From a virus, in the IMG/VR virus record IMGVR_UViG_3300035670_000060, positions 1 through 64,000 of that record: a stretch of 64,000 nt of DNA; one strand, written 5' to 3'. The first letter of the stretch is position 1. The number at the start of each line of letters is the position of its first letter. Of the stretch, positions 6,071 to 63,839 are shown in pieces. Below the pieces are notes generated by a model, which was not told the origin of the DNA, did no database searches, and saw only the letters and a list, made by a program, of their open reading frames with translations. The position numbers were made by a program, and so were the translations under genes.

Positions 6071-6076
6071 CTGAAA

Positions 6077-6196
6077 TCACTTCATCATAATTTCTTTAGC
6101 TTCTTTGATTCTACCATATCTTGTAGCGATTGCTGCTGCTCTTGCTTCACCGATAAGTTCAAGCCAAGATATAAATTTGTGCCAATATTGTTTCAT
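6077..6196 (-). CDS. Small protein, 39 aa (not in ORF track)
   Basis: MKQYWHKFISWLELIGEARAAAIATRYGRIKEAKEIMMK; ATGA overlap with the upstream small ORF, GAGGT RBS, followed by a terminator. Confidence 0.6.
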   Translation of the reverse strand: MKQYWHKFISWLELIGEARAAAIATRYGRIKEAKEIMMK

Positions 6197-6333
6197 AGCA
6201 CACCTCTATGCTTGAGTTGATTTTCTCTGTAAGCAAAGTCTGCTCTATCTACAGATTTAGCTAAGTATGATTCGATATAGTTTCTGGATGCCTTCACAAA
6301 GTAGTCACTGATGATCTTAAAGATTGGTATCAT
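6193..6333 (-). CDS. Small protein, 46 aa, DUF3563-like (not in ORF track)
   Basis: MIPIFKIISDYFVKASRNYIESYLAKSVDRADFAYRENQLKHRGVL; YLAxSxDxxD..R pattern; overlaps the hsp20 end. Confidence 0.55.
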   Translation of the reverse strand: MIPIFKIISDYFVKASRNYIESYLAKSVDRADFAYRENQLKHRGVL

Positions 6334-6805: not shown

Positions 6806-6811
6806 ATCGTT

Positions 6812-6915
6812 CTCCTTTATTAAGCGAGGTTAAAAAATTGCCAACCCATAAGGCGTTGGCACCAGTGGATATTTGAATAGCCTTCACTGGCATGCTATTT
6901 CCCATCCCGATGGGA
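6812..6915 (-). promoter_or_regulatory. Structured hsp20 5' leader: ROSE-like RNA thermometer with upstream hairpins and a pseudoknot
   Basis: CUCGCUU-AAUA-AAGGAG pairs the SD with a bulged G (ROSE U(U/C)GCU motif); further stems at 6840-6860, 6862-6899 and 6900-6915. Confidence 0.7.
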
Positions 6916-6924
6916 TAAAACTAT

Positions 6925-7074
6925 TTAGAAAAATCTTTTAAGAATTTCGTTGGTTTGTTCTTGAATTTGTTTGTGCTGATCAATGATTTTTGCTTCTTGT
7001 TCAACAATTTCAGTTGCTTGATCGAATGCTGTCACTTCATCTGCGCTTGGTAGTTTATTTAAATCGATAGTCAT
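6925..7074 (-). CDS. Small hypothetical protein, 49 aa (not in ORF track)
   Basis: MTIDLNKLPSADEVTAFDQATEIVEQEAKIIDQHKQIQEQTNEILKRFF with AAGGA RBS. Confidence 0.55.
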   Translation of the reverse strand: MTIDLNKLPSADEVTAFDQATEIVEQEAKIIDQHKQIQEQTNEILKRFF

Positions 7075-7095
7075 AGTTCAATCCTTTTTAAAAAA

Positions 7096-7323
7096 TTATT
7101 TAAATGATGCTTTTTTGCGAGATACCAAATAAGTTGTATTGCCTCTCTTATTTGTTCCACGGCTAACAGTGAAACCTTCTTTTCTAATTTCACTCATGCG
7201 AGCACTTAGATTTTTTACACCAAAACGTGCTTCAGCTTGAGGACCAGAAATGGTCCTACCAGTGTCACACAAGTAAGAAATTAAAAGTTCTTTCTGACTC
7301 TTATCAGATTTTGTCATTGCCAT
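7096..7323 (-). CDS. Small winged-helix DNA-binding protein
   Basis: EARFGVKNLSARMSEIRKEGF helix-turn-helix pattern followed by a wing. Confidence 0.65.
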   Translation of the reverse strand: MAMTKSDKSQKELLISYLCDTGRTISGPQAEARFGVKNLSARMSEIRKEGFTVSRGTNKRGNTTYLVSRKKASFK

Positions 7324-7362
7324 ATTTAAATCTCCATCAAAATGAATAACGAATGCTAAAAA

Positions 7363-7620
7363 TTATTTTTTAGCTGCTGGTTCAGCGGGTTTTGCTTCCG
7401 CTGCTTTTTTAGCTTCAGCCTCTGCTTTGCGTTCTTCCGGACGCTTCACTTTTGGCTTTGCTTTCTCGTCAGCCTTAGCGTCTGCTTTAGGAGCATTCGC
7501 TTTTGCTGCTGGAGCCGGTGCTGCTGCAGGTGTCGCCGACGCTGCTGGCGCTTTTGGTGCATCTGCTGCAAAAACTGTAAAAGGGACTGCGAATAATAAA
7601 ACTGCTAATGCTTTCTTCAT
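7363..7620 (-). CDS. Exported Ala/Lys/Pro-rich low-complexity protein
   Basis: Signal peptide MKKALAVLLFAVPFTVFA-AD then APK-rich tail; AAGGAG RBS. Confidence 0.7.
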   Translation of the reverse strand: MKKALAVLLFAVPFTVFAADAPKAPAASATPAAAPAPAAKANAPKADAKADEKAKPKVKRPEERKAEAEAKKAAEAKPAEPAAKK

Positions 7621-7651
7621 TTAAGACTCCTTTTGTTTTGAATAGAGATAC

Positions 7652-7680
7652 AGTATCTCATACTATTTAACGCATGTCAA
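7652..7680 (-). promoter_or_regulatory. Putative sigma70-type promoter, with an overlapping late-like TTAAATA
   Basis: TTGACA-17 nt-GATACT upstream of the 7363..7620 gene. Confidence 0.45.
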
Positions 7681-7699
7681 GACATTTCGTTGACAGGAA

Positions 7700-8104
7700 T
7701 TAAGATATTTTTTTCTTACCTATGTTATACTTAGTAGTAAGTTGCCATTCATCACGTTCTTTATGTGAGATGATTTTGATTTGTGATAATGGTGCTGTGA
7801 TTTCTTTTGCTTGTTCATGCTTTACGATTTCAATAAGACCCCATTCTTCTAAAAGATTTGCTATAGTGTTTCTACGACCCATATCATTATCAGTAAAGTC
7901 GGTAGGTTTACCATCTAATGCAAATAATTCTTTAAAGTGTACCACATAATATTTACCTTTTTTGTGTAGGATATGGCAAGACTGATAAAGCGTTCTATCT
8001 TTTCTGGATGCTACACCAATTCGTGTAAGTGTTTCACGCACTTTAAGAAAATCGTCCTCTTGCTTAAGTCTCACCTCCAATAAATCATCGATGTTAACTG
8101 CCAT
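7700..8104 (-). CDS. regA: Translational repressor RegA
   Basis: DDFLKVRETLTRIGVAS, LYQSCHILHKKGKYYVVHFKELF. Confidence 0.97.
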   Translation of the reverse strand: MAVNIDDLLEVRLKQEDDFLKVRETLTRIGVASRKDRTLYQSCHILHKKGKYYVVHFKELFALDGKPTDFTDNDMGRRNTIANLLEEWGLIEIVKHEQAKEITAPLSQIKIISHKERDEWQLTTKYNIGKKKIS

Positions 8105-8105
8105 T

Positions 8106-8495
8106 TCATTTCTCCTTACTTTTCAAACCACCTTTTTCTAGTTTTAACTTCATCTGGTGAATTTGTTCTTCCGTGAAGAGATTCATTACATCTTTAGCCT
8201 TGGTGTAACTATATCCAAAGTATTGAGAAATCACTTCAACGGTGTCAATTTTTTCACTCTTTAACCATTTGCTATACCGCTTTTTTGGTCTGATGCTATT
8301 TAGTAAATAGAGAAATTGTGCCTTTGATTCTAGGAAATGATACCGATTCATCTCATTAGCATAGAGAATCGTATCAGGAAAGAATGACAGTCCACGATTG
8401 ACAATGAATGGTGCGTATGCTTTTTCGGATGGTTCATCAACAATCAGATTTTCTTTTGTCTGATTGATAGCATTAATAAAGTCAAATGGTGTCAT
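8106..8495 (-). CDS. gp62: Clamp loader small subunit gp62
   Basis: YAPFIVNRGLS, NEMN, YFGYS; synteny with regA. Confidence 0.92.
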   Translation of the reverse strand: MTPFDFINAINQTKENLIVDEPSEKAYAPFIVNRGLSFFPDTILYANEMNRYHFLESKAQFLYLLNSIRPKKRYSKWLKSEKIDTVEVISQYFGYSYTKAKDVMNLFTEEQIHQMKLKLEKGGLKSKEK

Positions 8496-8496
8496 G

Positions 8497-8967
8497 TTAG
8501 TAATTGGATGTGGTATACTTCATCATTTCATTGATAACAGAATCTTGTACTTTATGTATCGGCACCACTGCATCCTGTTCAATAGGCACCAATGCCATCT
8601 CATCAATCCATCCATTGGATCTGGTAACTTTTCTAACTCTGTACTTGAATGTATTTTCAATTCTAAACAACCAGCCACTCCATCTATACTTATACTTCGG
8701 TGCAGGAATTGTAACGTAATAAAATTCATCTACACTTCTACATTTCATCAACTGACTTTTCTTAAATGCAATTGCACCTTCGGTAATAAATGGTGTACCG
8801 ACTTTGACTTCAACTGTCTTATCGTCAGCCATCAAGTCTTTTTCGGAGTCAAAGTTGTCTAATGAAAATTGAACTTTGCGATTCTCAGCAAGATAATTAC
8901 CAACATACTTCTCACCCATCTTGCCAAGAATCTCAATCTTTTGTTCTCTTGTTAGTGGTGCTCTCAT
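8497..8967 (-). CDS. Putative PD-(D/E)xK-fold endonuclease
   Basis: GKMGEKYV...EKDL...VEVK spacing; inserted between gp44 and gp62. Confidence 0.5.
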   Translation of the reverse strand: MRAPLTREQKIEILGKMGEKYVGNYLAENRKVQFSLDNFDSEKDLMADDKTVEVKVGTPFITEGAIAFKKSQLMKCRSVDEFYYVTIPAPKYKYRWSGWLFRIENTFKYRVRKVTRSNGWIDEMALVPIEQDAVVPIHKVQDSVINEMMKYTTSNY

Positions 8968-9905
8968 GATTTAAACTCACAATCAGCCATGACTTGCGTC
9001 AAAAATGCAACCAGATTAATTTCTTGGTCTGCTACAAATGCTGCTTTGTATTGATAGTCAGCAAGATATAAAATCAGTTGCGGTATAGAATTCGGTGTCA
9101 ATGCATCATTAGCACCATCAAAGATTTGTCGAAAGATTGCTTGTGGTTCATTATCTAAATTCTCAACAACCCACTTACGCATACCAGAAAAGTTCTTATC
9201 TTTCAATTGCTTGAATAGATCCTTGATGTTTGCATTTGCTACACTTGTTAGAATGCCTGCATCAATCTTACCTGTGACTGAGTACCGCTGCAATTCATTT
9301 AGCACACGGCGCCAATCAGGAAGATACTTCATGATCATTTCAGCAACAACTGCTTTATCATATTCAACGTTCTCTTTTTTGAGAATGTCTTCAACTCGCT
9401 TGATAAATTGAACAGCTAACTTCTTCTTGTTACCATTGACAATCTTAAAATGAACAACTGAACACCGACTGTGAAGTGGTGTAATGATCCGATTGACATA
9501 ATTACAAGTGAGAATGAAACCACAATTTGAAGAGAATTCTTCCATGAAGTTTCGAAGTGCTGGTTGAGTAGACTGAGGATTCAGATAATCAGCTTCATCA
9601 AGTATAACATACTTCCTACCACCAACAAATGAAATAGTAGATGCATAGTTTTTAATTTCATTGCGAAGTGTATCAATGTTACCATTCATACTACCATTGA
9701 TAATGATATAGTCTGCACCAATTTCATCAAGCATGGCCCTAGCAACGGTTGTTTTGCCAACACCAGGACCACCTGCTAGAATGAGATTCGGTACGTTTTT
9801 GGTATTGACAAACTCTTGAAAGGTTGCTTTCAGATCCGCAGGAAGAATGGTATCTTCAACAGTCTTTGGTCGATACTTCTCGACCCATAAAAAATCTTCA
9901 CGCAT
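8964..9905 (-). CDS. gp44: Clamp loader ATPase subunit gp44
   Basis: WVEKYRP, GPGVGKTT, ILDEAD, SRC motifs. Confidence 0.97.
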   Translation of the reverse strand: MREDFLWVEKYRPKTVEDTILPADLKATFQEFVNTKNVPNLILAGGPGVGKTTVARAMLDEIGADYIIINGSMNGNIDTLRNEIKNYASTISFVGGRKYVILDEADYLNPQSTQPALRNFMEEFSSNCGFILTCNYVNRIITPLHSRCSVVHFKIVNGNKKKLAVQFIKRVEDILKKENVEYDKAVVAEMIMKYLPDWRRVLNELQRYSVTGKIDAGILTSVANANIKDLFKQLKDKNFSGMRKWVVENLDNEPQAIFRQIFDGANDALTPNSIPQLILYLADYQYKAAFVADQEINLVAFLTQVMADCEFKS

Positions 9906-9934
9906 AACTTCTCCATAATAAAAATAACATTATA

Positions 9935-10192
9935 TCACTTCGTGACGGATTCGTAAAGAGTCTCCAAGTCTTGTTGATCCTGTTGTACCTGATTGAAGTT
10001 TTGCTTATGAAAAACTTTAGCCAATCTGCGAGTGTATTTCTTCTTGATTTTGTAATTGTCTTCAACGGTTTGAAGAATATCTTTAATCAAGTCTCGTTCA
10101 GCCTCCATGCGAGTCAGACTGTCCGAGATTTCTTGTAACGCTTGGCGAATTTTTTTCTTGTCTTCTGGTGAAGATGGTACGACTACGCTCAT
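9935..10192 (-). CDS. T4 DsbA-like double-stranded DNA-binding protein
   Basis: Size and helical pattern ALQEISDSL...IKDI...RRLAKVFHKQNF. Confidence 0.6.
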   Translation of the reverse strand: MSVVVPSSPEDKKKIRQALQEISDSLTRMEAERDLIKDILQTVEDNYKIKKKYTRRLAKVFHKQNFNQVQQDQQDLETLYESVTK

Positions 10193-10866
10193 GCTTCATA
10201 CCTCGATCCAGGTTCCATTGCAACCCAATACTCAAGTGTTGGTGAAACAAAATGTGCGATGCCTTTTGAAGATGCACTAACAGCATAATCACTCGGAATC
10301 AATTTGATGTTACCGACACTAAATGTAAATCGGAAGTCTGCTGTAGTCTCACCAACTTCTTGTGAGTATGTATCAGAGCCATCGTTCTTACTATCAACTG
10401 CTGCTAACGTAATCTTAGACCTATCACCAACGATTGCAATGTGAGGCAAACCAAGAATGCCTGCAAGTTTCAATACTTGTATCAATGCATCTTTCTTTAA
10501 TGTGAACTGGACTTCTGCACTTGAAACTTTAATGTCTTTGTCTGGTGCTGCTACAATCATTGATTCATCAGTCAATCGATATACCAATTTAGATGAGTCG
10601 GACTGAATCACTGCACTTCCTGCTGAACCGTCACCAGTCTTCTTGATTGTGATATCAGGTTTGTCTAGTGAACTAACGACAGATAAAAATCGATTCAAAT
10701 CATAGATACAAAATTCATCTACGATTGCATCAGGAATGGTTGCTTTACCTACTACGGCTTTCTGCGCTGAAATTACCCTCAACAAATTGCCTTTGCGGAA
10801 CATCATACCCGTGTTGATTGTCGAAAAGTTTTTCAGAACCTCTAATGTCTTGTCGCTCAATTTCAT
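10189..10866 (-). CDS. gp45: Sliding clamp gp45
   Basis: MKLSDKTLEVLKNFSTIN, FCIYDLNRFL, YWVAME. Confidence 0.95.
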   Translation of the reverse strand: MKLSDKTLEVLKNFSTINTGMMFRKGNLLRVISAQKAVVGKATIPDAIVDEFCIYDLNRFLSVVSSLDKPDITIKKTGDGSAGSAVIQSDSSKLVYRLTDESMIVAAPDKDIKVSSAEVQFTLKKDALIQVLKLAGILGLPHIAIVGDRSKITLAAVDSKNDGSDTYSQEVGETTADFRFTFSVGNIKLIPSDYAVSASSKGIAHFVSPTLEYWVAMEPGSRYEA

Positions 10867-11149
10867 TCTTCACTTCTCCATAAAATTTATCATGTATATA
10901 AACCATCATAATAGCATAATGTATAACTTTAAGCAAGTCTTTTCGATTCCTACCTCCTTTCTTACCATATCGCTGTGCATATTTCATTACATTACCAATA
11001 GTAAAACCTTCACCGTGACCACAGTCAATAATGAACTCAGTCGCCTGAAATTGGTTTTGTGAATAGTGTTCACCGTAGGTCGCTTCGATATAAGTCTCAA
11101 GTTCTTTTAGAATTCGAGGCTCATCATACTTATACGGCAAATTCTTCAT
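10745..11149 (-). CDS. DUF3310-like protein (putative nucleotide-related)
   Basis: HY...GFTIGNVMKYAQRYGKK...DLLKVIHY; 3' end overlaps gp45 by 122 nt. Confidence 0.7.
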   Translation of the reverse strand: MKNLPYKYDEPRILKELETYIEATYGEHYSQNQFQATEFIIDCGHGEGFTIGNVMKYAQRYGKKGGRNRKDLLKVIHYAIMMVYIHDKFYGEVKNEIERQDIRGSEKLFDNQHGYDVPQRQFVEGNFSAESRSR

Positions 11150-11982
11150 CGTTTTGGTGCTGTTTTAGATGCGGTTGGAGATGCGCCGACTGCTGCTAAC
11201 GCTGATAGAGAACCGCCCCATGTATACGAACCAGTGTGTTTTAATTCAAGCCATGGTAACATCCAAACTTTCAATCCAGATTTTCTTGCATACTGACAAA
11301 ACATGTAGTCTTCAGATAGATATCGCTTTGATTCAGGATCTATAACACAATCGAAGAATGCCATAATTTCTCGACTACCATCGAATGCTTTGGTACGTAC
11401 ATGATCTGGTTTGTATGATCGCTCAGGATAATCTTGCGACATTTTTTCAAATACATTTTTTCGAATCAACATGAATCCAGTACCGCCTTCTTTTACTTCA
11501 GCAGGTTCATTCAATGGAATTCGTTCAGTGCCATCCACGGGATTGAATACATAGTCGCCTGTAAAGTTTTCGAGAATGAGAGGATCCTTATCAGCAAAGC
11601 CTTTGTCTACCGCAGACTTTACTTTCTCCCACGATATAGCCTTCTTAGGATATGGTCCGCATACAATATCTTTATCTTCTCCTTCAGAATAGTGAAGCAT
11701 TACCAAAACGTCTTGGGCTGCAAATGTGATATCACTATCAATGAAAAGTAGGTGAGTGTAATCACTACGAATAAATTCGTCGGCTAAGTAATTTCTGGCT
11801 CGTGTGATGAGTGATTCATTGAACATGAAAAACAATTTACATTCAATTTTGTATCGAGTGCATAGTACCATTAAGTCAGCAATAGATTTGGTATAACCTC
11901 CGTAACATTGACCGCCATACATTGGCGTTGCAACGAAAAGTTTTTTGTCTCTCATTTTTTCTAGATCAATCGATATTTCCAT
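11146..11982 (-). CDS. GT-A-fold glycosyltransferase-like protein
   Basis: VATPMYGG, ESLITRARN, FIDSD (DxD), GTGFML, SEDY. Confidence 0.7.
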   Translation of the reverse strand: MEISIDLEKMRDKKLFVATPMYGGQCYGGYTKSIADLMVLCTRYKIECKLFFMFNESLITRARNYLADEFIRSDYTHLLFIDSDITFAAQDVLVMLHYSEGEDKDIVCGPYPKKAISWEKVKSAVDKGFADKDPLILENFTGDYVFNPVDGTERIPLNEPAEVKEGGTGFMLIRKNVFEKMSQDYPERSYKPDHVRTKAFDGSREIMAFFDCVIDPESKRYLSEDYMFCQYARKSGLKVWMLPWLELKHTGSYTWGGSLSALAAVGASPTASKTAPKR

Positions 11983-12020
11983 GATAACTCCATAATAATG
12001 TTATTGTAATATTATATATG

Positions 12021-12050
12021 CAAAAAAGGTGGCTGATTGAATCAGCCACC
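12021..12050 (-). terminator. Rho-independent terminator after the CobS-like gene
   Basis: Minus strand GGTGGCTGATT-CAAT-CAGCCACC-TTTTTT. Confidence 0.8.
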
Positions 12051-12067
12051 GAGAAAAGTTTTAAATT

Positions 12068-13270
12068 TTAGAAAGGCACTTCTTCGGTATGTACTTCTGG
12101 TGTACTTACCACCGGTGAAACATTTACAGGCTCAGGAACCAACTTTGTGTAGAGGTCCATAAATGCAGTCTTGGTTTCAGCATCAAAGCGGTTGATACAG
12201 TATGTAATCGCTTCGGTGCGGTCACCAAAAATCTGGTATGCTTTCGCAATGGACACCAGACGGCGAGTGGAAATCAATTCATCAATTGCACCTTCTTGAA
12301 AAGTCTTCCGAATGATATCAGCCCACTTGACAAGAATCTCCGAAAATTCTTTATCTTGCAAACCAAGACTATCAAATACACGGGTAAGAATCTTACTCTC
12401 AACGGTTGTAGAAGGATACTCCTGTTCAACCGTGATAGGAAACCGCTCAAGGAATGCATCATCAAGAATGGTAGCAGCCATGAACCGACCGGTTTCATCG
12501 CCCTTACCTTTGGTGTTAGCGGTTGCTATCACATTGAAGCCGGGTGCAGGACGAACAGTCTCACCAGTTTTCTTTACGAAAATTGGCTTGCCCTCAAGGA
12601 TACCTTGCAAGCACATAAGTTTATTAGAACCACGGTCAATTTCATCAAGGCAGAGGATTGCACCGGACTTCATGGCCTGGAGCACTGGACCGTCGTACCA
12701 GCGGGTTTCGCCATCAATCAAGCGGAAACCACCAATCAAGTCATCCTCATCCGTCTCCGGTGTGATGTTCACTCGCATAAATTCACGCTTGAGTTTGGCG
12801 CAAACTTGCTCTACCATCATAGTCTTACCGTTGCCGGAGAGACCGGAAACGAACACTGGGTAGAACTGATTGGATGTTACCACCTTCAGCATTTTATCGA
12901 AGAAACCAAAGGGTACGTACAACGGATCCACATTAGGAACCGAGGGGCCTTCATCAATTCGAATGACTTTGGCAATCTTAGCCACTAGTTTTTCTCGCAA
13001 TTCGACCACTGGAGCAACCGCCGGTGAAGCCATCGGAGTCACTGGAGCGGGTTGTTTAATGGCAGTTACGGTAGCAGTCATGTCCACACCGTACTCAGCC
13101 AGAGGGAGCTGGTAGACACCACGGCCAATACGATACTTATCGCCAGAGACCCACACTTGGCGCTTTACGCCTTCGTTCTCCAACTCCAACAATTGTTGCA
13201 TTGTCACGGTATTGCCAAAGCGACTCTGGAGAGTCTTAAGGTACTGGACCTTATCAGCACGGCTAGTCAT
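12068..13270 (-). CDS. cobS: CobS/MoxR-like AAA+ ATPase
   Basis: GLSGNGKT, LDEID, ATANTKG, AFLERF, ISTRRL; cyanophage-type CobS. Confidence 0.88.
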   Translation of the reverse strand: MTSRADKVQYLKTLQSRFGNTVTMQQLLELENEGVKRQVWVSGDKYRIGRGVYQLPLAEYGVDMTATVTAIKQPAPVTPMASPAVAPVVELREKLVAKIAKVIRIDEGPSVPNVDPLYVPFGFFDKMLKVVTSNQFYPVFVSGLSGNGKTMMVEQVCAKLKREFMRVNITPETDEDDLIGGFRLIDGETRWYDGPVLQAMKSGAILCLDEIDRGSNKLMCLQGILEGKPIFVKKTGETVRPAPGFNVIATANTKGKGDETGRFMAATILDDAFLERFPITVEQEYPSTTVESKILTRVFDSLGLQDKEFSEILVKWADIIRKTFQEGAIDELISTRRLVSIAKAYQIFGDRTEAITYCINRFDAETKTAFMDLYTKLVPEPVNVSPVVSTPEVHTEEVPF

Positions 13271-53905: not shown

Positions 53906-54649
53906 TTATCCAATCATATCAGATACAGGTAATGAATATGAAGATATCATCTCAGCTTCTAATGCTGTTATTTCATCTGTTGCTTCATCCCAAATTTTTT
54001 GACCGTTGAATGTCAGACCACCCGGCATTTGGAGACCTTCAAACTTTTTTAAATTTTCGCCCCACTGTTTTTTAATTTGTGCTGTTGCATATCGTTGAAG
54101 CCATCTGTCACCCCATACATCTGAGTATGTATCAGGATCCACTTTCTGGTATGCTTCAATAATAATATATTCGCCAGTCACAACTTTTGCTGACCAATCC
54201 ATATCGATATAAAGTCTGTTTACATGGCGATTATATCTGAGACTTTGGCGCCCAACAAAAAGTTCTTCAGCAAGCGCAACATTCTGAAGTGCCATGTAGT
54301 ATGGTGCGAAAGGTCCATAATTGAATGCAAACAGATCGTTCAGTGCGATTTGATATCGAATGTTGAACAGATTGTTTGAAGAATAAGAGTCACCAATATC
54401 AAATATATTAATGATACCAATGACTGCTTCTGGAATGGTTATGTATTTGTTTGTCTTGTCTTCAGCAGTGACTGGATGTGCTAAATAAACTTTCTGTGTA
54501 CCATCAAAATGATAATCGTGATAATACGCTAATGCTTCGTCAATTCTATCTTCAACTTGTTCATCCGCTACATTAATTTCAAGTACAGGTTTCCCTAACT
54601 TACGTAAGCAATATTCTTTAAATTCATCTCTACTGGTAGGTTTAGCCAT
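53906..54649 (-). CDS. gp13: Neck protein gp13
   Basis: YCLRKLGKPVLEINV, YHFDG, KKQWGENLKKF, PGG. Confidence 0.94.
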   Translation of the reverse strand: MAKPTSRDEFKEYCLRKLGKPVLEINVADEQVEDRIDEALAYYHDYHFDGTQKVYLAHPVTAEDKTNKYITIPEAVIGIINIFDIGDSYSSNNLFNIRYQIALNDLFAFNYGPFAPYYMALQNVALAEELFVGRQSLRYNRHVNRLYIDMDWSAKVVTGEYIIIEAYQKVDPDTYSDVWGDRWLQRYATAQIKKQWGENLKKFEGLQMPGGLTFNGQKIWDEATDEITALEAEMISSYSLPVSDMIG

Positions 54650-54685: not shown

Positions 54686-54898
54686 TTAACAGATTAGTGC
54701 TTTGCCATCAATCAATAGTAAATTGCCTTTGCATGCCAGATTCCATTTTTTTACACCATGCTCGTAAGTACATTCGTCATACACGGGCACGTTGATTTCT
54801 AAACTTTTAGCTAAGACTTCTTCGCCATTTTCAAAAATTCTCCAGAAAAAATCAGTGTCGCCGTGCTGTGTATTAAATCGAATATGGTATTGCTTCAT
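54686..54898 (-). CDS. Small conserved hypothetical protein
   Basis: YHIRFN...WRIFENG...KWNLACKG; ATGA overlap with the upstream kinase fusion. Confidence 0.65.
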   Translation of the reverse strand: MKQYHIRFNTQHGDTDFFWRIFENGEEVLAKSLEINVPVYDECTYEHGVKKWNLACKGNLLLIDGKALIC

Positions 54899-55731
54899 TC
54901 AATTCCCATTTCTTTTCGAATTTTGGTTGCTGAAATAGCATGTATCGTATCATCGAAAACTTCTTGTTCAATCTTGTAGCCGACATCTCTACCGTATGTG
55001 ATGTTTACAATGTTTGGAACAATCAAAATTTCATACTGACCTTGATAGAGTGGATCTAAGTCTCTTCGAATATAGTTTTTAACTTCTTCAATTGCAAATG
55101 GATTACTTCCATTCCAACCCTGACAATCACGAATCATGATACATACTTGACCAGTTTTTGCTAACGCTCTTTCAAATAACGCACGATGACCTTTGTGCCA
55201 TGGTTGCCAACGACCTAACATCTGCACAGTTTCTTTGCGCCAATCAAAAGTTGGTCTTCTTTTACGACTTAAAATTGCTTCACCTACATACTGCACCCAC
55301 TTTTCAGCATTCTTTTCGTTGATTCTAAAATCATAGATTTCTGGTGGCACAAATGCTTTGTTCGTATCTTCATAACGACCAGCATCAATCGTATCCATCC
55401 AGATTGTCCAGTCTGCTTTAAAGTTGTGACGCATTTCAGCAAGTGGTGCTACAAAATCACAAATGACATATTCGCCAGTGCATCGCATTGCAAATTCTGC
55501 CATCCTCAACGACTGCCGAATGCGACCTTCTTTTGAAAAGTCCCAATCATTGAATCGCTTTCGAATGTCATCAGCATTGAACCAATCAACTCGTGCGTTC
55601 ATTCGAGGATATGGAGCGTCACTAAGTGTGTTTAAAGGACGCTCTCCGTGAATCTCAAGATAAGTCTTTAATCGTTCTGCAAAATATGTTTTACCTGAGC
55701 CAGGCAAACCCATAATCAATATTTTTTCCAT
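54895..55731 (-). CDS. APS-kinase-like P-loop domain fused to an HxGH nucleotidyltransferase (putative minimal PAPS synthase)
   Basis: GLPGSGKT, NADDIR, DFSKEGRIRQ, CDFVAP (CysC-like); GRWQPWHKGH, YGRD, ISATKIR (HxGH nucleotidyltransferase). Confidence 0.75.
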   Translation of the reverse strand: MEKILIMGLPGSGKTYFAERLKTYLEIHGERPLNTLSDAPYPRMNARVDWFNADDIRKRFNDWDFSKEGRIRQSLRMAEFAMRCTGEYVICDFVAPLAEMRHNFKADWTIWMDTIDAGRYEDTNKAFVPPEIYDFRINEKNAEKWVQYVGEAILSRKRRPTFDWRKETVQMLGRWQPWHKGHRALFERALAKTGQVCIMIRDCQGWNGSNPFAIEEVKNYIRRDLDPLYQGQYEILIVPNIVNITYGRDVGYKIEQEVFDDTIHAISATKIRKEMGIE

Positions 55732-55995: not shown

Positions 55996-56946
55996 TTAGC
56001 CTCCTATGAGTTTAGTATCTTCGGTTTCTGTTGGTGCATCCGATTCGGATGTTGGTTCTTCAAAATTTGCGTCAATCTCTTGTAGATTTCTCCAAAATGC
56101 TGTATTTTCACATCGCTTTAAAATTTCTTCTGAAAGAACTTCTTTAGGATCGACTGACGCTCTATTTATTGTACTACGAACTTCATGCATGTCTGCAAGC
56201 CCATAAACTTCAGCATCTTTTTCTTTATGTATGTTTTCAATTTTGCTAAAGTCATGTGCGAAATATTCTTCACCAAGAAATTCATAAATCTTTCGCATTG
56301 TATCATCTGGATTCTCAAGCAAATCGTTATATTCAATGAAGTGAAGATTTTTCTGTCTACCTTCCATTAGTGCTTGTTGAATGCCAAAATAGCTTTGGCC
56401 AAGAATTCCATTTGGACTAGCTAAGAACGTACATCGATTATCATCGTTTAAAGGCGTGTTTGTTTTGATAAGCATTTCATCAATGAAATTAATCTTACCT
56501 TCACCGCCGTATGGATTTCTGCGTTGCATTGTAATAAATGATGTAAGAATTTCTTCAATGTCACGAACTGGGCATAAAACTTTTGGTTCAATTCCAAAAT
56601 ATCCAGGAATGTAATGTAGTCGATTCACCCATGACCGATTCTTGTCAATGATGACAGGCTTATCTACGTCAGAATAATAATTATCCATGACACTAGAAAT
56701 AATTTTTGCAGCTTGTGGTAACTTAGGAAAAGCCATAAAAAGTTCATCGTTTGAAAAAGAATTTTCAAGCGTGAGCATTGTAGGTACCACAGGAGAACTT
56801 GGACCAGAATAGACTCTTGGATTTTGATTTAGAATCGATGATAGAAGTGTACTTCCTGATCTTGGAAGCCCAGACATAAAGTAGTATGTCTTCATTGACG
56901 CTCTCATCATTTCTTCTCTTATAATTTCTTTAATCATTTCTTTCAT
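55996..56946 (-). CDS. PAPS-dependent sulfotransferase
   Basis: 5'-PSB motif SGLPRSGSTLL, DKNRSW, VRD...ILTSF (3'-PB), IEYNDL. Confidence 0.88.
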   Translation of the reverse strand: MKEMIKEIIREEMMRASMKTYYFMSGLPRSGSTLLSSILNQNPRVYSGPSSPVVPTMLTLENSFSNDELFMAFPKLPQAAKIISSVMDNYYSDVDKPVIIDKNRSWVNRLHYIPGYFGIEPKVLCPVRDIEEILTSFITMQRRNPYGGEGKINFIDEMLIKTNTPLNDDNRCTFLASPNGILGQSYFGIQQALMEGRQKNLHFIEYNDLLENPDDTMRKIYEFLGEEYFAHDFSKIENIHKEKDAEVYGLADMHEVRSTINRASVDPKEVLSEEILKRCENTAFWRNLQEIDANFEEPTSESDAPTETEDTKLIGG

Positions 56947-56957
56947 TGTTCATCACC

Positions 56958-57860
56958 TCATTGTTGATTGTTTACAGATTCTATAATTTTATTTATATCA
57001 AATAATTTAACGTCATCTGTATAAGGATATTCAATTTCATTTCCGTTGAAGTCAAAGTCAAATAAGTAACTGCCAGGAAGTTTGAAGTTATATGGCACAT
57101 CGGTACAAATATTATCATGCATATCATAACCAAAAACTTTAGGGCTTGTACCATTCCATAAAACAGTGGATTTCTTTCTAAGTGCTGCTGCTGCATGTTG
57201 CAACGAAGAGTCTATAAGAATTCTCTTTTTGCTATGTAAAAGAATACTAAAAAATTCCATTAGACTGAGTGCTTGTTGCTGCGTAGCAAAAACATGTTCA
57301 GCGCCTTCAAGTTTTGGTGAGTTCATCTTGGTAACTTGGTAAATATGATAGTCTTTTTTGTAATAGTCTATCAATTCTTGTGCTAATTCTGGCGGCATGT
57401 CTCTTGTCCATGAATAAGGCTTAGCATCTGTTGTCATTGGACCGCCACTTGTATGTATAACCATGATAGGCTTTTTTCTCAACCAAAATTTTCTTGAAAG
57501 ATCCCATTGAAGTTTATTAAACTTTACCTCTGGGCGCTCATTGTCGAATTTTAATTGATGCATTTCGCACCAATTTTCAATCAGTCGTTTCCGTTTATGT
57601 ATATGATTTGTCGTATAGTATGGTTCGTGATGAAAAATCAGAGAATCTTTATCTTGAATGTATTCTTGGTAGAAATATTGTGTGCCACCTAACAGAAAAA
57701 CTCTGTCAACAAAAGAAAGATTAATAAAAATATCAGGATATGCACATACGACAATGAGTTTTCTGTCAGGAAAATTGTTTTTAATTGCTTTTGCAACAGC
57801 GGTTGCTGCTACGTGTTTTCCAATACCGCCTTGAAGATGAAAAATACTATATTTCTTCAT
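56958..57860 (-). CDS. GT-B-fold glycosyltransferase (GT9-like)
   Basis: GGIGKHV N-terminus, IDSSLQHAAAAL, VLWNGTSP..FGY. Confidence 0.7.
   Translation of the reverse strand: MKKYSIFHLQGGIGKHVAATAVAKAIKNNFPDRKLIVVCAYPDIFINLSFVDRVFLLGGTQYFYQEYIQDKDSLIFHHEPYYTTNHIHKRKRLIENWCEMHQLKFDNERPEVKFNKLQWDLSRKFWLRKKPIMVIHTSGGPMTTDAKPYSWTRDMPPELAQELIDYYKKDYHIYQVTKMNSPKLEGAEHVFATQQQALSLMEFFSILLHSKKRILIDSSLQHAAAALRKKSTVLWNGTSPKVFGYDMHDNICTDVPYNFKLPGSYLFDFDFNGNEIEYPYTDDVKLFDINKIIESVNNQQ
56990..56997 (-). promoter_or_regulatory. Putative T4-type late promoter TATAAATA ahead of the sulfotransferase
   Basis: Exact motif 44 nt upstream of the sulfotransferase start, inside the 3' end of the GT gene. Confidence 0.5.
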
Positions 57861-57861
57861 A

Positions 57862-58590
57862 TTATAACCTTTCTTTTGTTGCTTTCACGATGTCCCACGT
57901 TCTCGCATTTTTGATATGATGAAAATGATATGCATTACTTGCGTCTAAAGCTAGTCTTTTAGTTATGTCATAATTTTTATGCTCTGAAACAAGCGTTTTT
58001 GATATCTCACCTTTGATCCTATTCGTCTTGAATATGTATATATGTTCGTTGTTCTGCGTCAGATATTCATCACCGAACCAGATTTGATATAGTCTTGGTA
58101 TCACCTTATACGAAGTTCGCTTTATAAACATACATACACCAAATGCATATCCTTGACCACCTATAGGTTGAGTTTTATCATGTTTGAGTTTGAACAATTC
58201 ATCTTCACCTTCATGAACACCAACTGTATAATTATCTGGTGTGTTTTTTAAATGAACGCCTACAACATCAATCTCTTTAAAATCTACTGCTGAGAAATCA
58301 CGAAATACACTCGATTCAACTTCTATGTCATCATTGATAATGGAAAGAACATTCGCTTTTGATCTATAGTAACCTTCATTCCACGAAGGATTTACGTAGT
58401 TGTTTTTACCATAACAAATGATATGCAACTTAGATGAATTCAATTCGTCAACTCTTTTTGGTCGATTTGCTTTGTCATTGTCAATCAAAAAGATATTTCC
58501 AATATACTCGCATTCAATGTAGGTGTCAAGTGCGGATAGAAAATTTTTAGACTTCCACATTGTAGGAATTACAACGTCAATTGTATTCAT
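57862..58590 (-). CDS. GT2-like glycosyltransferase
   Basis: VVIPTMW, LIDN, NPSWN, INDD, WFGD. Confidence 0.75.
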   Translation of the reverse strand: MNTIDVVIPTMWKSKNFLSALDTYIECEYIGNIFLIDNDKANRPKRVDELNSSKLHIICYGKNNYVNPSWNEGYYRSKANVLSIINDDIEVESSVFRDFSAVDFKEIDVVGVHLKNTPDNYTVGVHEGEDELFKLKHDKTQPIGGQGYAFGVCMFIKRTSYKVIPRLYQIWFGDEYLTQNNEHIYIFKTNRIKGEISKTLVSEHKNYDITKRLALDASNAYHFHHIKNARTWDIVKATKERL

Positions 58591-59249
58591 AAATCTTCTA
58601 TGTTATAATTTTTCATTGTCGATTCAAAATTACCTTTATACATCTTATTGCCTAAATGGTAAACTGTATGATTCGGTTTGATCCAGATTTTGTAACCGAG
58701 TTCTCGAATCTTATTTGAAAGTGTAATATCTTCACCAACAAAAGCTCCGTTTATGTATGTAAATTCACATATGTTTTTTAATTTCTTACTACGAAAATCT
58801 AATTCAACATTAGAGATCCATAAATCTTTAATGACTTTTTTGGAAAGTTTTAGAAAGCCTGTTCCTACACGAGATGCTGTCAGATAACCATCTTTCGGAT
58901 CTCTCTTGACCACACTGTTAAAATAAACGTTATACTGTATATTTGTATCACCTTTATTTACAACTGGTATAGCGATGACATCTTTTGGTGAAGAAAGAAT
59001 TTCAATCAATGCTTTCTCATCCCACATTTCATCATCGTCAATGAATACCATTGCATCATAATTTTCTTTGTATGCTAAATTAAAGAGTTCATTTCTGGCC
59101 ATTGGAAGAATACTTTCATTGGCCAGAAACACTACATTGATTGACAAATCGTGTTTCAATCCTAACTTAATAGATTCACATAAACTATGAACGAAATATG
59201 CGTCTACTTTTTGATCTAAACATGGTGTAGCAATTAATATACGTTTCAT
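58587..59249 (-). CDS. GT-A-fold glycosyltransferase-like protein (same family as 11146..11982)
   Basis: IATP, ESILPMARN, FIDDD, GTGF, GED. Confidence 0.7.
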   Translation of the reverse strand: MKRILIATPCLDQKVDAYFVHSLCESIKLGLKHDLSINVVFLANESILPMARNELFNLAYKENYDAMVFIDDDEMWDEKALIEILSSPKDVIAIPVVNKGDTNIQYNVYFNSVVKRDPKDGYLTASRVGTGFLKLSKKVIKDLWISNVELDFRSKKLKNICEFTYINGAFVGEDITLSNKIRELGYKIWIKPNHTVYHLGNKMYKGNFESTMKNYNIEDL

Positions 59250-59284: not shown

Positions 59285-59313
59285 ATTGTATATATTGTCA
59301 CATAAAATGTCAA
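59285..59313 (-). promoter_or_regulatory. Sigma70-type promoter for the glycosyltransferase/sulfation cluster
   Basis: TTGACA-17 nt-TACAAT. Confidence 0.65.
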
Positions 59314-62300
59314 GTAACTCTTTTCTCTAGTGCTTCAAGTCTACTCTTAAGTGCATCTATTTCATTCGACATCTCATTAATTGTATTGACAAGAACTGGT
59401 ATCAAATGATCATTTGTCATTTGAAGTTTTTCCGGCATCTCTTTACTTACGATGACAGGATTGTCACCTTCAGCCTCTAGAATGTTTTGTGCGCTGAAAC
59501 CATATCGTTTTCTGGTATCCGTAATTTCACCAGTGTCTCGATTTTTAAATGAGAATTCAATTGGTGTAATCTTTCGAAGAAAATCTCTACCGTGTGGAAC
59601 AGGTCCGAAGATTGTTTTGTCACGAACATCTGAAACAGTAGTCCAACCAATTTGAATTTGAGCGCAAGTATGTGCATTATTGCCCATGATGATGCGATTT
59701 GATTCAGTTGTGATATTAGCTAGACCAATTGTTCCAACAGCAGCATTGCATCCAAAGAAAAGATTGTTGCTGCCAGTGGTGTTACAGTAACCAGCACATT
59801 GACCAGCAAAGATGTTATTATTGCCAGTGGTGTTAGCAGCACCAGCAGCATTACCAATGAAATTATTGTTAGAGCCAGTGGTGTTATTTAAACCAGCACT
59901 TTGACCAAAGAAATTATTACTACAGCCAGTGGTATTGCCATAACCAGCACTTGAACCAATGAAATTATTAAAACCGCCAGTGGTATTGTAGCGACCAGCA
60001 CTTGCACCAAAGAAATTATTACTAGTGCCAGTGGTGTTGTTTAGACCAGCACTTGCACCAAAGAAATTATTACTAGTGCCAGTGGTGTTACTGCAACCAG
60101 CATTCACACCAATGAAATTATTGTAACTGCCAGTGGTGTTCTTGTAACCAGCACGATTACCAATGAAATTGTTATGTCCGCCAGTTGTGTTATAGTAACC
60201 AGCACGATTACCAAAAAAATTATTTTGGCTGCCAGTGGTATTATAGTAGCCAGTTTGCCTACCAAAGAAATTATTATAATTGCCTGTGGTATTATAGAAA
60301 CCTGCTAATGGACCAAAGAAATTGTTACAATTACCTGTTGTGTTACAGTAACCAGCACATGCACCAAAGAAATTATTAAAAAATCCAGTGGTATTATTGT
60401 TACCAGCCACGTAACCCATAAAATTATTATAAGCGCCTGTGGTGGTATTGCGACCAGCACATAAACCAGCGAAGAAGTTGTAACAGGCATCGTTACAGTA
60501 ACCAGCTGCTAAACCAATAAAAATATTACCAATGCCTGTGACGTTAAAGCGACCTGCATCTTTTCCAAAGAAAGTATTATTGCTACCAGTTGTATTTTTA
60601 CAACCAGCAAGATTACCAATGAAAGTGTTATAACTGCCATTAGTATTACAGAGACCAGCACATTGACCAATGAAAGTATTGCCACTGCCAGTGGTATTGC
60701 CATAACCAGATACAAGACCAAAGAAATTATTATGACATCCAGTGGTGTTGCTGGAACCAGCTTGATTACCAAAGAAATTATTACAACTGCCAGTGGTATT
60801 AGTTATGCCAGCAGCATTACCAAAGAAATTATTATGACAGCCACTGCTATTGCCGCGACCAGCATATCGACCAAAGAAATTATTAAAACAGCCAGTAGTA
60901 TTGTAGCGACCAGCACAACAACCAATGAAATTATTATAACTGCCAGTGGTATTGTAGCGACCAGCACAAAAACCAATAAAATTATTACTAGTGCCAGTGG
61001 TGTTAGAGAAACCAGCACATTGACCAAAGAAATTATTATTACAGCCAGTGGTATTGGAGCGACCAGCACTTGGACCAAAGAAATTATTATTGCTGCCAGT
61101 GGTGTTACAGAAACCAGCCCATCTACCAAAGAAATTATTAAAACAGCCAGTGGTGTTATTGCGACCAGCACATAGACCAAAGAAATTATTATAGCTGCCT
61201 GTTGTGTTAACCAAACCAGCACTATTACCAATGAAATTATTATTGCTACCCGTCGTGTTACAGTAGCCAGCCGACTCACCAAAGAAATTATTATGACTGC
61301 CTGTTGTGTTAAAGCGTCCGGTATAATAACCAAAGAAATTATTATTGCTGCCTGTTGTGTTCAAACAACCAGCACTTCCACCAAAGAAATTATTCTTCCA
61401 GCCTGTTGTGTTACATAAACCAGCACAACGACCAAAGAAATTATTATAGCTGCCTGCTGTGTTAAAGTAACCAGCACTTAGACCAAAGAAATTATTACAG
61501 CCGCCTGTTGTGTTACAGAAACCAGCACTTTGACCAAAGAAATTATTATTACAGCCAGTGGTGTTACTGTAACCAGCAGCGCAACCAAAGAAATTATTGT
61601 GATTGCCAATTGTATTGGAAAAACCAGCACTTTGACCAAAAAAGTTATTCCAAGCACCACTGATATTACACATACCAGCACAAAGACCAGCAAAGAAGTT
61701 ACAACCGCCAATGATATTGTAGCGACCAGCATTTAAACCGATAAAAGTATTATGACAGCCTGTTGTATTACAGAAACCTGCACATCGATTAATAAAGGTA
61801 TTATATTTGCCATTGGTATTAAAACGACCAGCATCACGACCAAGGAAAATATTATCATTACCATCGATATTAGCGTAACCAGCACATTGACCAGCAAAGA
61901 AGTTATAACTGCCAGTGATGTTACAGTAACCAGCAGCGCAACCAAAGAAATTATTATTACATCCAGTGGTATTATTAATACCAGCAAAATGACCAAAGAA
62001 ATTATTAAATCTAGCAGTGGTGGTAGAACGACCTGCTTGATTACCAATGAAAGTATTACCAAATCCAGTGGTATTAGCGTAACCAGCATAGTAACCAATG
62101 AAATTATTAGAACCACCAGTGGTGTTACAGTAACCAGCACATGTACCAGCAAAGAAGTTATGACAGCCAGTGGTATTACTGTAACCAGCAAGATAACCAA
62201 AGAAATTATTCATACTGCCAGTGGTGTTACTGTAACCAGCACATAAACCTGCGAAAAAGTTATGACTACCAGTGGTGTTACATAAACCAGCACATGCACC

Positions 62301-63839
62301 AATAAAAGTATTATGACTGCCAGTGGTGTTAAAGCGACCAGCGCATAAACCTGCGAAAAAGTTATAGCTACCGTAGTTATTGGCTAAACCAGCACTGTTA
62401 CCGAAGAAATTATTGTGACTGCCAGCATTCAAATAACCAGCAAAATGACCAAAGCTATTATTATTACAACCAGTAATGCTAAGAAAACCAGCATAGCGAC
62501 CAAGGTAATTATTATGACTGCCAGTGGTATTGGAGCGACCAGCTTGATTACCAAAAAAGTTATTATAACAACCAGTGGTGTTAAGACGACCAGCAGCTAG
62601 ACCAAAGAAATTATTAAAACTGCCAGTGGTGTTATTGCAACCAGCACTTTGACCAAAGAAATTATTACCAGCGCCAGTGGTGTTACGAAAACCACTATTA
62701 CATCCTAAAAAGTTATTAAAACTGCCAGTGGTGGTGGCAAAACCTGAAGAAAAACCTGCGAAGAAGTTATGACATCCAGTGGTGTTACAGAAACCAGCAC
62801 ATTGACCGAAGAAAATATTACCAGCGCCAGTGGTGTTATTGTAACCAGCATATTGACCAATGAAAATATTAAAACATCCTGTGGTGTTGTAGCGACCAGC
62901 ACAGGAACCAGCAAAGAAGTTGTGACTACCAGTGCTATTGGCATAACCAGTATAACAACCAAAGAAATTATTATGAGATCCTGTGGTGTTATTGAGACCA
63001 GCAGCAAGACCTAAAAAATTATTCCAACTACCTGTAGTGTTATTTCTACCTGAATTATTACCAATGTAATTATTATTACAGCCTGTAGTATTGTTACGAC
63101 CTGTATATTTTCCAATAAAATTATTGTTAGATGCTGTTTCATTATATAATCCAGCACCTTTACCAAAGAAATTATTGTAAGAACCTGTGCTATTATACTT
63201 ACCAGCTTCATGACCAAAGAAATTGTTATAACATCCGCTACTATTACATCGTCCAGCATTTAAACCAAAAATATTATTAAAACATCCTGTAGTGTTAATA
63301 CAACCAGCATTTTGACCTAAGAAAATGTTCCAACTACCAGCTAAGTTGCATCGGCCAGCAGATTCACCTAAAAAGATATTACTGACGCCAGTGGTGTTAC
63401 AAAAACCAGCTCGTGATCCTGCAAAAAAGTTGCTGCTTCCTCCACCAAAATTACATGACATGCCACTTATTATATTGCAATTACCTTTAGTTACAAATGC
63501 ACTTGTAGTTTTTTCTGTATACCATGCACCACCTGATGCAAAAATTCGTGTGCCTTGTTCTCTATACAATATAATAGATGCTCTACCGTCATCGATAGTT
63601 TCAGCACCTTGCGGATCAATAGTTAAATTAAACGCTACGTTATTGAAAATTTTAAATGACATTCCCTCGGAACTTGCTGCTGGAGGTAAATTGATCGTCC
63701 CCGCTGCTGTTCCGTTATAAACAATGATGTCATTATTATCTTCAGGAGATACCGTATATGCACTCGCAGTGATATTTTTGGTAAGTTCTCTATAAGGAAC
63801 TTGACTGTTGAGTGCCGATATCTGATAAGGTCTTGCCAT
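59310..63839 (-). CDS. Repeat-rich fibre protein with C-terminal intramolecular chaperone (peptidase S74-like), 1509 aa
   Basis: About 72 17-aa NTTG repeats; SDVRDK...YGFSAQ...LIPVLVNTINE plus terminal coiled coil. Confidence 0.85.
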   Translation of the reverse strand: MARPYQISALNSQVPYRELTKNITASAYTVSPEDNNDIIVYNGTAAGTINLPPAASSEGMSFKIFNNVAFNLTIDPQGAETIDDGRASIILYREQGTRIFASGGAWYTEKTTSAFVTKGNCNIISGMSCNFGGGSSNFFAGSRAGFCNTTGVSNIFLGESAGRCNLAGSWNIFLGQNAGCINTTGCFNNIFGLNAGRCNSSGCYNNFFGHEAGKYNSTGSYNNFFGKGAGLYNETASNNNFIGKYTGRNNTTGCNNNYIGNNSGRNNTTGSWNNFLGLAAGLNNTTGSHNNFFGCYTGYANSTGSHNFFAGSCAGRYNTTGCFNIFIGQYAGYNNTTGAGNIFFGQCAGFCNTTGCHNFFAGFSSGFATTTGSFNNFLGCNSGFRNTTGAGNNFFGQSAGCNNTTGSFNNFFGLAAGRLNTTGCYNNFFGNQAGRSNTTGSHNNYLGRYAGFLSITGCNNNSFGHFAGYLNAGSHNNFFGNSAGLANNYGSYNFFAGLCAGRFNTTGSHNTFIGACAGLCNTTGSHNFFAGLCAGYSNTTGSMNNFFGYLAGYSNTTGCHNFFAGTCAGYCNTTGGSNNFIGYYAGYANTTGFGNTFIGNQAGRSTTTARFNNFFGHFAGINNTTGCNNNFFGCAAGYCNITGSYNFFAGQCAGYANIDGNDNIFLGRDAGRFNTNGKYNTFINRCAGFCNTTGCHNTFIGLNAGRYNIIGGCNFFAGLCAGMCNISGAWNNFFGQSAGFSNTIGNHNNFFGCAAGYSNTTGCNNNFFGQSAGFCNTTGGCNNFFGLSAGYFNTAGSYNNFFGRCAGLCNTTGWKNNFFGGSAGCLNTTGSNNNFFGYYTGRFNTTGSHNNFFGESAGYCNTTGSNNNFIGNSAGLVNTTGSYNNFFGLCAGRNNTTGCFNNFFGRWAGFCNTTGSNNNFFGPSAGRSNTTGCNNNFFGQCAGFSNTTGTSNNFIGFCAGRYNTTGSYNNFIGCCAGRYNTTGCFNNFFGRYAGRGNSSGCHNNFFGNAAGITNTTGSCNNFFGNQAGSSNTTGCHNNFFGLVSGYGNTTGSGNTFIGQCAGLCNTNGSYNTFIGNLAGCKNTTGSNNTFFGKDAGRFNVTGIGNIFIGLAAGYCNDACYNFFAGLCAGRNTTTGAYNNFMGYVAGNNNTTGFFNNFFGACAGYCNTTGNCNNFFGPLAGFYNTTGNYNNFFGRQTGYYNTTGSQNNFFGNRAGYYNTTGGHNNFIGNRAGYKNTTGSYNNFIGVNAGCSNTTGTSNNFFGASAGLNNTTGTSNNFFGASAGRYNTTGGFNNFIGSSAGYGNTTGCSNNFFGQSAGLNNTTGSNNNFIGNAAGAANTTGNNNIFAGQCAGYCNTTGSNNLFFGCNAAVGTIGLANITTESNRIIMGNNAHTCAQIQIGWTTVSDVRDKTIFGPVPHGRDFLRKITPIEFSFKNRDTGEITDTRKRYGFSAQNILEAEGDNPVIVSKEMPEKLQMTNDHLIPVLVNTINEMSNEIDALKSRLEALEKRVT
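59750..63430 (-). repeat. Array of about 72 51-nt coding repeats (GxxAGxxNTTGxxNNFF)
   Basis: Same 51-nt unit as 33200-36790. Confidence 0.95.

Follow-up and report, generated by a model that had tools for sequence, protein, structure and literature searches.

A candidate minimal PAPS synthase with a NadM-like nucleotidyltransferase domain, encoded beside a phage sulfotransferase gene

In the animal PAPS synthases PAPSS1 and PAPSS2, and in bacterial Sat-CysC fusions such as that of Aquifex aeolicus (PDB 2gks), an adenosine 5'-phosphosulfate (APS) kinase is joined to an HxxH-type domain that transfers an adenylyl group. PAPSS carries the kinase first and converts ATP and sulfate in two steps to 3'-phosphoadenosine 5'-phosphosulfate (PAPS). 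A related pairing is found in Campylobacter jejuni, where Cj1415/Cj1416 (CDP-amidate kinase and cytidylyltransferase) combine a CysC-like kinase with a nucleotidyltransferase and provide a 3'-phosphorylated donor for the decoration of surface glycans. Here we analyse P0001, an open reading frame (ORF) of 278 amino acids (aa) that likewise consists of a CysC-like kinase and a nucleotidyltransferase. It lies in a window of 64,000 nucleotides, positions 1 to 64,000 of the IMG/VR virus record IMGVR_UViG_3300035670_000060; the full record measures 113.6 kb, is ~63% complete and has 36.5% G+C, and T4-like structural genes surround the locus. P0001 shares with PAPSS the order of kinase and transferase and, as we propose, the two-step chemistry, and its kinase domain is homologous to those of PAPSS and the Sat-CysC proteins. 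In contrast to P0001, these proteins, of roughly 550-630 aa, rely on a sulfurylase of the Sat type (PF01747) that includes a PUA-like domain. Comparative sequence analysis leads us to propose, with a probability of about 0.7, that P0001 is a minimal PAPS synthase built on an ATP sulfurylase analogue that is not of the Sat type, and that it supplies the adjacent sulfotransferase.

P0001 occupies positions 54895-55731 of the window on the minus strand, with the ATG at 55731 and the stop codon at 54895-54897. A TTG at 55746, five codons upstream, is an alternative start, but the ATG is favoured because homologues begin with M-[EQ]-K-I-L. The first-pass annotation of this DNA had placed an ORF of about 278 aa at the same positions without naming the strand, and all motifs that it quoted (GLPGSGKT, ADDIR, DFSKEGR, FVAP, GRWQPWHKGH, YGRD and ISATKIR) are present. 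Since matches are found in more than 8000 clusters at 90% identity and, at E <= 0.001, in 2101 cluster representatives at the 50% level, and the AlphaFold model has a mean pLDDT of 90.3, the ORF is far beyond chance. Its best PHROG match is phrog_10255 ("kinase", 4.4e-48). Across 30 diverse members, 18 residues are invariant and are split over both halves of the protein: G8, G13, K14, D54, R57, F65, R70 and T123 in the kinase half, and G173, R174, Q176, H179, H182, R201, G247, R248, G251 and R272 in the nucleotidyltransferase (NT) half.

The N-terminal half (residues 1 to ~157; 55261-55731, minus strand) is APS-kinase-like by Pfam, PDB profile search and fold, which bears out the CysC-like kinase of the first-pass annotation. 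PF01583 scores 28.7 bits against a cut-off of 21.1. When the family profile is compared with the PDB, the top 17 matches are all APS kinases (E 1e-16 to 5.5e-12), and the top Foldseek matches of this half are again all APS kinases, with TM scores by target of 0.55-0.73. The conserved kinase core consists of the P-loop, DxxR, FS...R and [FI][VI]xP. In P0001, the P-loop is GLPGSGKT (residues 8-15; 55687-55710, minus strand), which contains the invariant G8, G13 and K14, and the further kinase motifs are NADDIR (51-56), DFSKEGR (64-70) and DFVAP (92-96). At the CysC motifs LDGDNxR and LGFSxxDRxENxRR, P0001 reads FNADDIR and DFSKEGRIRQSLR, respectively. Some members of the family have DLGFSxEDRxEQARR, which is near the CysC motif of the fusion protein P0216 (see below), and the first Asp of the DGD motif is N or D across the family. 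Compared with CysC (PF01583), with which it shares the core motifs and the fold, the domain is short (~155 aa, against ~175-200 aa); it has an insertion at residues 27-47 that is modelled with lower confidence, and profile and PDB alignments stop near residue 90-105. Phosphorylation of the 3'-OH of APS is the predicted activity of this half and is supported by homology.

The C-terminal half (residues 160-278, ~115 aa; 54898-55254, minus strand) is a minimal HxGH nucleotidyltransferase and represents the proposed ATP sulfurylase analogue. Its nucleotide-binding HxGH signature, GRWQPWHKGH (residues 173-182; 55186-55215, minus strand), contains G173, R174, Q176, H179 and H182, none of which varies among 30 to 35 diverse members. 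ISATKIR (residues 266-272; 54916-54936, minus strand), the signature typical of the C-terminus in HxGH nucleotidyltransferases, has invariant I, S, A, T and R in an alignment of NT domains only. Between the two lies YGRD (residues 246-249; 54985-54996, minus strand), whose Y, G and R vary little or not at all.

The first-pass annotation had argued from a likeness to Sat-type ATP sulfurylases, and this rationale does not survive: the C-terminal domain fails membership of the Sat family and of the NadM family. No PF01747 match was found in the domain at E <= 0.01, and PDB profile searches taken to E = 10 returned no Sat catalytic domain, Sat entries being matched via their kinase domains only. 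With Sat (Thermus thermophilus, 1v47), the domain shares the superfamily fold and the order of the HxxH and ISGTxIR-like motifs; in contrast to Sat, it has no significant sequence similarity, RWQP replaces the RNP of the Sat motif QxRNPxHxxH (as in NadM), and the N-terminal PUA-like domain and the ~200-aa catalytic domain of Sat are missing, with the kinase preceding a domain of about half the Sat catalytic size instead. HMMER pairs ISATKIR with ISGTEIR of NadM and only insignificantly with the corresponding motif of Aquifex Sat. As for the GRD motif that had been compared with Sat, the Gly and Arg are conserved in the family but the Asp is not, and SAR11 copies read YGRG.

NadM (M. jannaschii MJ0541, 1f9a; Francisella NadM-Nudix, 2qjt) is the best match in sequence and fold, with GRxQPxHxGH and ISxTxIR in common. 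The earlier caveat that the motif resembles NadM was thus correct at the sequence level, although a reading as NMN adenylyltransferase (NMNAT) is disfavoured by context. PF01467 matches the domain weakly. The NadM models TIGR01527 and PRK01153 reach 1e-6 to 1e-7, far below their family cut-offs (26.5 versus 181.2, and 28.4 versus 127). The profile of the domain finds 1f9a at 2.2e-11, in an alignment that covers only residues 5-69 and 110-137; compared with the full NadM core, the domain lacks ~25 residues of the middle segment, between strands 3 and 4, and the last ~30 residues, with the C-terminal helices. In addition, Arg248 and the near-invariant Arg201 have no counterpart at the aligned NadM positions, and the domain is found without Nudix or NAD context, its links being to APS kinase, APS reductase and sulfotransferases.

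Modelled alone, the C-terminal domain has a pLDDT of 92. The structure comparison with Sat and NadM that had been suggested recovers the superfamily fold, with Thermus ATP sulfurylase 1v47 at Z 8.7 in VIA (rmsd 3.5, 116 of 119 residues aligned), but phosphopantetheine adenylyltransferase (PPAT) and NMNAT score higher, at Z 10.1, so that Sat lies ~1.4 Z below the top; the Foldseek list for the domain held no Sat. The model places the domain in the superfamily that includes Sat, at superfamily level only, and the substrate is not decided by the fold.

In thousands of proteins, the NT domain is joined to an APS-kinase-like domain or neighbours one. In P0216 (311 aa), the order is the reverse of that in P0001: the NT domain, which is 47% identical to that of P0001, is at the N-terminus and is followed by a full-length canonical CysC (PF01583 at 5.7e-63, 212 bits) with GLSGSGKTT, LDGDNLR and LGFSPEDRTENIRR. 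The P0216 cluster has seven members, from JGI, ENA, Tara, NCBI and Logan. NT-then-kinase order also occurs in Omnitrophota, and a viral scan with P0216 returned only kinase-then-NT or split forms. Split, overlapping kinase and NT genes are found in a phage (L143) and in SAR11. The family is also cellular: SAR86, soil Alphaproteobacteria and many isolate and single-cell genomes of Pelagibacteraceae carry it on the chromosome, usually as two adjacent genes. In further lineages, the fusion lies amid genes for glycan synthesis (GT2, GT4, UDP-glucose dehydrogenase, epimerases and CMP-sugar cytidylyltransferase). Public names are generic ("kinase", "cytidyltransferase" or "adenylylsulfate kinase"), with the protein atlas giving only "cytidyltransferase", and our literature search returned nothing relevant on an alternative ATP sulfurylase, on a phage PAPS synthase or on the family as ATP sulfurylase.

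Two further proteins, P0237 and P0258, which appeared to combine the NT domain with a partial chorismate synthase or DHQS_C, were rejected; they show only partial profile matches and are probable chimeras or miscalls. A metagenome protein of 395 aa (P0160) has a DUF4118 membrane domain on the N-terminal side of the kinase-NT fusion, which suggests that the fusion is anchored in the membrane in some bacteria.

Sulfur oxidisers have sat upstream of aprMBA in the operon; SAR11 has the NT gene in this place. We sampled 121 genomes at the family level and found NT in 71, AprA in 60 and Sat in 5. NT is present in 59 of the 60 AprA genomes (AprA x NT table 59/1/12/49; p = 4e-21, uncorrected for shared ancestry), and in 24 sampled genomes it precedes aprA on the same strand by no more than 4 kb; in five genomes with NT upstream of aprA, a search with one SAR11 kinase did not find the family kinase. 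Two loci (L223 and L224) show a same-strand array of stand-alone NT, a 264-aa membrane protein with at least four predicted membrane segments, AprB, AprA, a 116-aa gene and a TauE/SafE sulfite exporter, with no kinase within 10 kb of the NT gene. Five SAR11 genomes were studied closely. Each has one NT copy, none has Sat or a convincing CysD or CysH, and sulfotransferase matches are present in four. Most SAR11 lack ATP sulfurylase although they possess AprAB (PMC10356861), and sat was present in one of seven SAR11 isolates (PMC3448164), which leaves the route from sulfite to sulfate, and any supply of PAPS, with an unexplained step.

The 116-aa gene (L223:13592-13942; also in L214, L194, L219, L222 and L224) always follows aprA directly and has no family match. 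At L225:8853-10373, the flanks are those of L223 and L224 (TenA-like, NT, TauE) and the aprM-aprB-aprA-116-aa block is absent, a pattern that resembles a clean polymorphism in which the APS reductase genes beside NT are either present or absent. In three SAR11 single-cell genome loci (L185:10424-12712, L202 and L186), kinase and NT are ~2.4 kb apart, and the interval in L185 is a 762-aa autotransporter gene. A sulfotransferase-like gene that directly follows NT in the SAR11 locus L176 was considered as part of a conserved operon and rejected, the other SAR11 loci being without it.

In the phage record, P0001 is one of a series of minus-strand genes spaced by -4 to 17 nt, which follow each other in the order 1509-aa repeat fibre, three small genes, sulfotransferase, 81-aa ORF, P0001, 70-aa ORF and then structural genes. 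The sulfotransferase (316 aa; 55996-56946, minus strand), the proposed consumer of PAPS, matches PF13469 (8e-15), PF00685 (1.5e-11) and phrog_27463 (1.5e-79). Among 80 viral loci found via the family, 24 have a sulfotransferase relative within 10 kb, and PF13469 is above its cut-off in 25 of 80 NT-bearing viral records. Conversely, in 10 of 17 loci picked by the sulfotransferase only, a kinase-NT gene lies 0.3-1.1 kb downstream. As a control set, we used 80 related contigs picked via a neighbouring structural gene: both genes are present in 12, the sulfotransferase alone in none, NT alone in 2 and neither in 66 (p = 1.5e-12, uncorrected for shared ancestry).

In cultured Sano-like siphoviruses (Xylella phage Bacata, L001 5559-6735; Sano, Salvo and Bhz60), the kinase-NT gene overlaps a COG3236 / GTP cyclohydrolase II-like gene; its role may differ there, or the PAPS consumer of these phages may be unrecognised. 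In a 22-kb contig labelled as a metagenome-assembled genome (MAG) of Synechococcus sp. CPC35 (L169; NYUU01000002.1), the kinase-NT gene adjoins a homologue of the structural gene at 53906-54649 of the window; phage DNA that was assigned to a cyanobacterial MAG during binning is the probable explanation.

The reading of P0001 as a PAPS synthase is supported by the fusion of NT and CysC domains, the sulfotransferase cassette of the phages, the position of NT upstream of aprMBA and the rarity of Sat. The first-pass proposal of a stripped-down ATP sulfurylase plus APS kinase that feeds a sulfotransferase therefore gains support from genomic context, on other grounds than the one that it had given. 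In the proposed mechanism, the C-terminal domain would transfer the adenylyl group of ATP to sulfate, yielding APS and pyrophosphate. His179 and His182 would act at the alpha-phosphate and Arg174 and Arg272 would hold the leaving pyrophosphate, whereas the family-specific Arg248 and the near-invariant Arg201 are speculative candidates for holding the small anion. The N-terminal domain, as homology indicates, would then use a second ATP to convert APS to PAPS. With the two domains fused, or with translation of the split genes coupled, the unfavourable first step would be pulled forward, and the PAPS would be consumed by the sulfotransferase encoded two genes upstream, in a packed cassette next to the repeat fibre. 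A phage of this kind would supply the sulfate donor itself, and in hosts that make little or no PAPS this would be of consequence.

Extending this proposal to the cellular members, we consider it rather probable that the NadM-like domain of 115-130 aa is a third, unrecognised type of ATP sulfurylase. The stand-alone form upstream of aprMBA would be the "missing" enzyme of AMP-dependent sulfite oxidation in SAR11, working in reverse together with AprBA (sulfite and AMP to APS, and APS to sulfate and ATP). Together with the small kinase, the same domain would provide SAR11, SAR86 and many aquatic phages with a PAPS supply independent of Sat and CysDN, and the fused form would be a phage auxiliary gene in a mobile sulfation cassette.

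Several observations weigh against the assignment of P0001 as a PAPS synthase. Its support is wholly computational, and the co-occurrence statistics carry no correction for shared ancestry. In the kinase half, the PF01583 match spans only profile positions 5-93 of 152 and leaves the canonical lid region unmatched, and Asn stands where the canonical CysC DGD motif has its first Asp. In the C-terminal half, the Sat family model finds no match, and the nearest relatives in both sequence and fold are NMNATs and PPAT rather than Sat. Among the 121 sampled genomes, 12 have NT without AprA, and four of the five Sat-positive genomes also have NT, so that the expected anti-correlation of Sat and NT is not seen and no clean displacement pattern emerges. 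Most SAR11 kinase-NT pairs are in a core context with no adjoining sulfotransferase. The coupling of sulfotransferase and kinase-NT gene in phages is not obligatory either: one complete phage of 236 kb has the sulfotransferase without the kinase-NT gene, another of 383 kb has the kinase-NT gene without a PF13469 match, and Sano-like and DLP_6 phages have no annotated sulfotransferase near the kinase-NT gene. Finally, a SAR11 cluster similar to the Campylobacter O-methyl-phosphoramidate genes shows that CysC-like kinase and sulfotransferase-like genes can serve a donor other than sulfate.

That cluster bears on the possibility that the two domains of P0001 make a PAPS-like donor without sulfate, a 3'-phosphorylated nucleoside diphosphate derivative comparable to 3'-phospho-CDP-amidate, and that the "sulfotransferase" moves this other group. 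In the SAR11 locus concerned (L239, G083:C6:22000-39000; ~3970-12116), a CysC-like kinase (169 aa) is clustered with a PPDK_N/PEP-utiliser protein (778 aa), a GATase/peptidase C26 protein (200 aa), a CTP_transf_3 protein (226 aa), a methyltransferase and two sulfotransferase-like proteins that might be group transferases, a layout that we take to match Campylobacter Cj1415-Cj1418. However, the nucleotidyltransferase of L239 belongs to a different family, and the PPDK-type glutamine-kinase-like and GATase/C26 amidase-like genes of that locus have no matches in the P0001 cassette or in related phage loci. The kinase fused to NT in P0216 is, at 212 bits, a genuine CysC, compared with 104 bits for the L239 kinase, and the linkage of NT to aprMBA points to APS itself. 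We consider a non-sulfate donor distinctly unlikely. The same linkage can be turned in another direction, since the strongest cellular association of NT is with AprBA, where APS is used, often without a kinase, and the forward reaction of ATP sulfurylase is thermodynamically unfavourable. The C-terminal domain would then act on APS rather than form it, as an ADP sulfurylase (APS:phosphate adenylyltransferase) or in the APS-consuming direction only, and the phage kinase would need APS from the host. We regard this as unlikely; ATP sulfurylase runs freely in both directions, pyrophosphate is the leaving group or the acceptor in HxGH enzymes, the repeated fusions with APS kinase, in both orders, are as expected for a forward flux to PAPS, and SAR11 genomes without Sat or CysDN still carry the sulfotransferase matches described above.

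A different substrate altogether is suggested by the relatives of the C-terminal domain, the NadM NMNATs in sequence and PPAT and NMNAT in fold. As an adenylyltransferase for NMN or another phosphate ester, the domain would make the fusion an enzyme for NAD, CoA or FAD-type cofactors, either a permuted NadR-like pair of nicotinamide riboside (NR) kinase and NMNAT or an analogue of PPAT plus dephospho-CoA kinase; some neighbours in SAR11 are CoA-related (enoyl-CoA hydratase, CoA-binding protein), and the COG3236 / GTP cyclohydrolase II-like gene adjoins the fusion in Sano-like phages. Nevertheless, the scores far below the NadM cut-offs and the loss of ~25 middle residues and the C-terminal part of NadM argue against this function, as does the kinase half, which is APS-kinase-like and matches NR kinase at the P-loop only (E 0.0028). 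The five closely studied SAR11 genomes all have CoaE and CoaD-, NadD- and RibF-sized PF01467 genes already, and no Nampt (PF04095) is present in the phage record. A cofactor enzyme would also leave the CysC fusion, the position at aprMBA and the sulfotransferase cassette unexplained, and we consider it very unlikely. The very small size of the domain might instead indicate that it has no catalytic role and only binds nucleotides or regulates a kinase that works alone; degenerate partners are known in this pathway from fungal ATP sulfurylases, which carry a non-catalytic APS-kinase-like regulatory domain. Since the catalytic signatures of the superfamily, HxGH and ISxTxxR, are all invariant across relatives that are 32-61% identical to the P0001 C-terminal domain, and since NT is also found by itself, as a conserved single-copy gene in genomes without the kinase, this is highly improbable.

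SAR11 are among the most abundant bacteria of the ocean. If the assignment of P0001 and its relatives to sulfate activation is correct, a very small and widespread candidate enzyme would be available for the unexplained step of SAR11 sulfur metabolism, and aquatic myoviruses would carry a self-contained cassette for sulfate activation and sulfotransfer next to their fibre genes. The proteins would be the smallest known ATP sulfurylase and PAPS synthase, an NMNAT-like scaffold would have been recruited to an inorganic anion, and thousands of genes that now bear the generic names given above would gain a function.

The remaining genes of the cassette are all on the minus strand. At its head is the 1509-aa fibre-like repeat gene (59310-63839), 60 nt from the next gene, which contains dozens of short repeats (NNFFG...AG...NTTG), with 50 NTTG motifs and 77 N-x-S/T sequons; as a speculative possibility, this fibre could be the protein that becomes glycosylated and sulfated. 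It is separated from the sulfotransferase by three tightly packed genes of 300, 242 and 220 aa (56958-59249; gaps of -4 to 11 nt), which have no Pfam match and match only the function-unassigned PHROGs phrog_8954 and phrog_1574. The 81-aa ORF between the sulfotransferase and P0001 (55749-55994) matches no Pfam or PHROG family, and a homologue is present in only 1 of 80 related loci. On the other side of P0001, a 70-aa ORF without family match (54686-54898) overlaps the P0001 stop by 4 nt; it is carried by 13 of 80 related viral loci and, in most of these, lies directly downstream of the kinase-NT gene.

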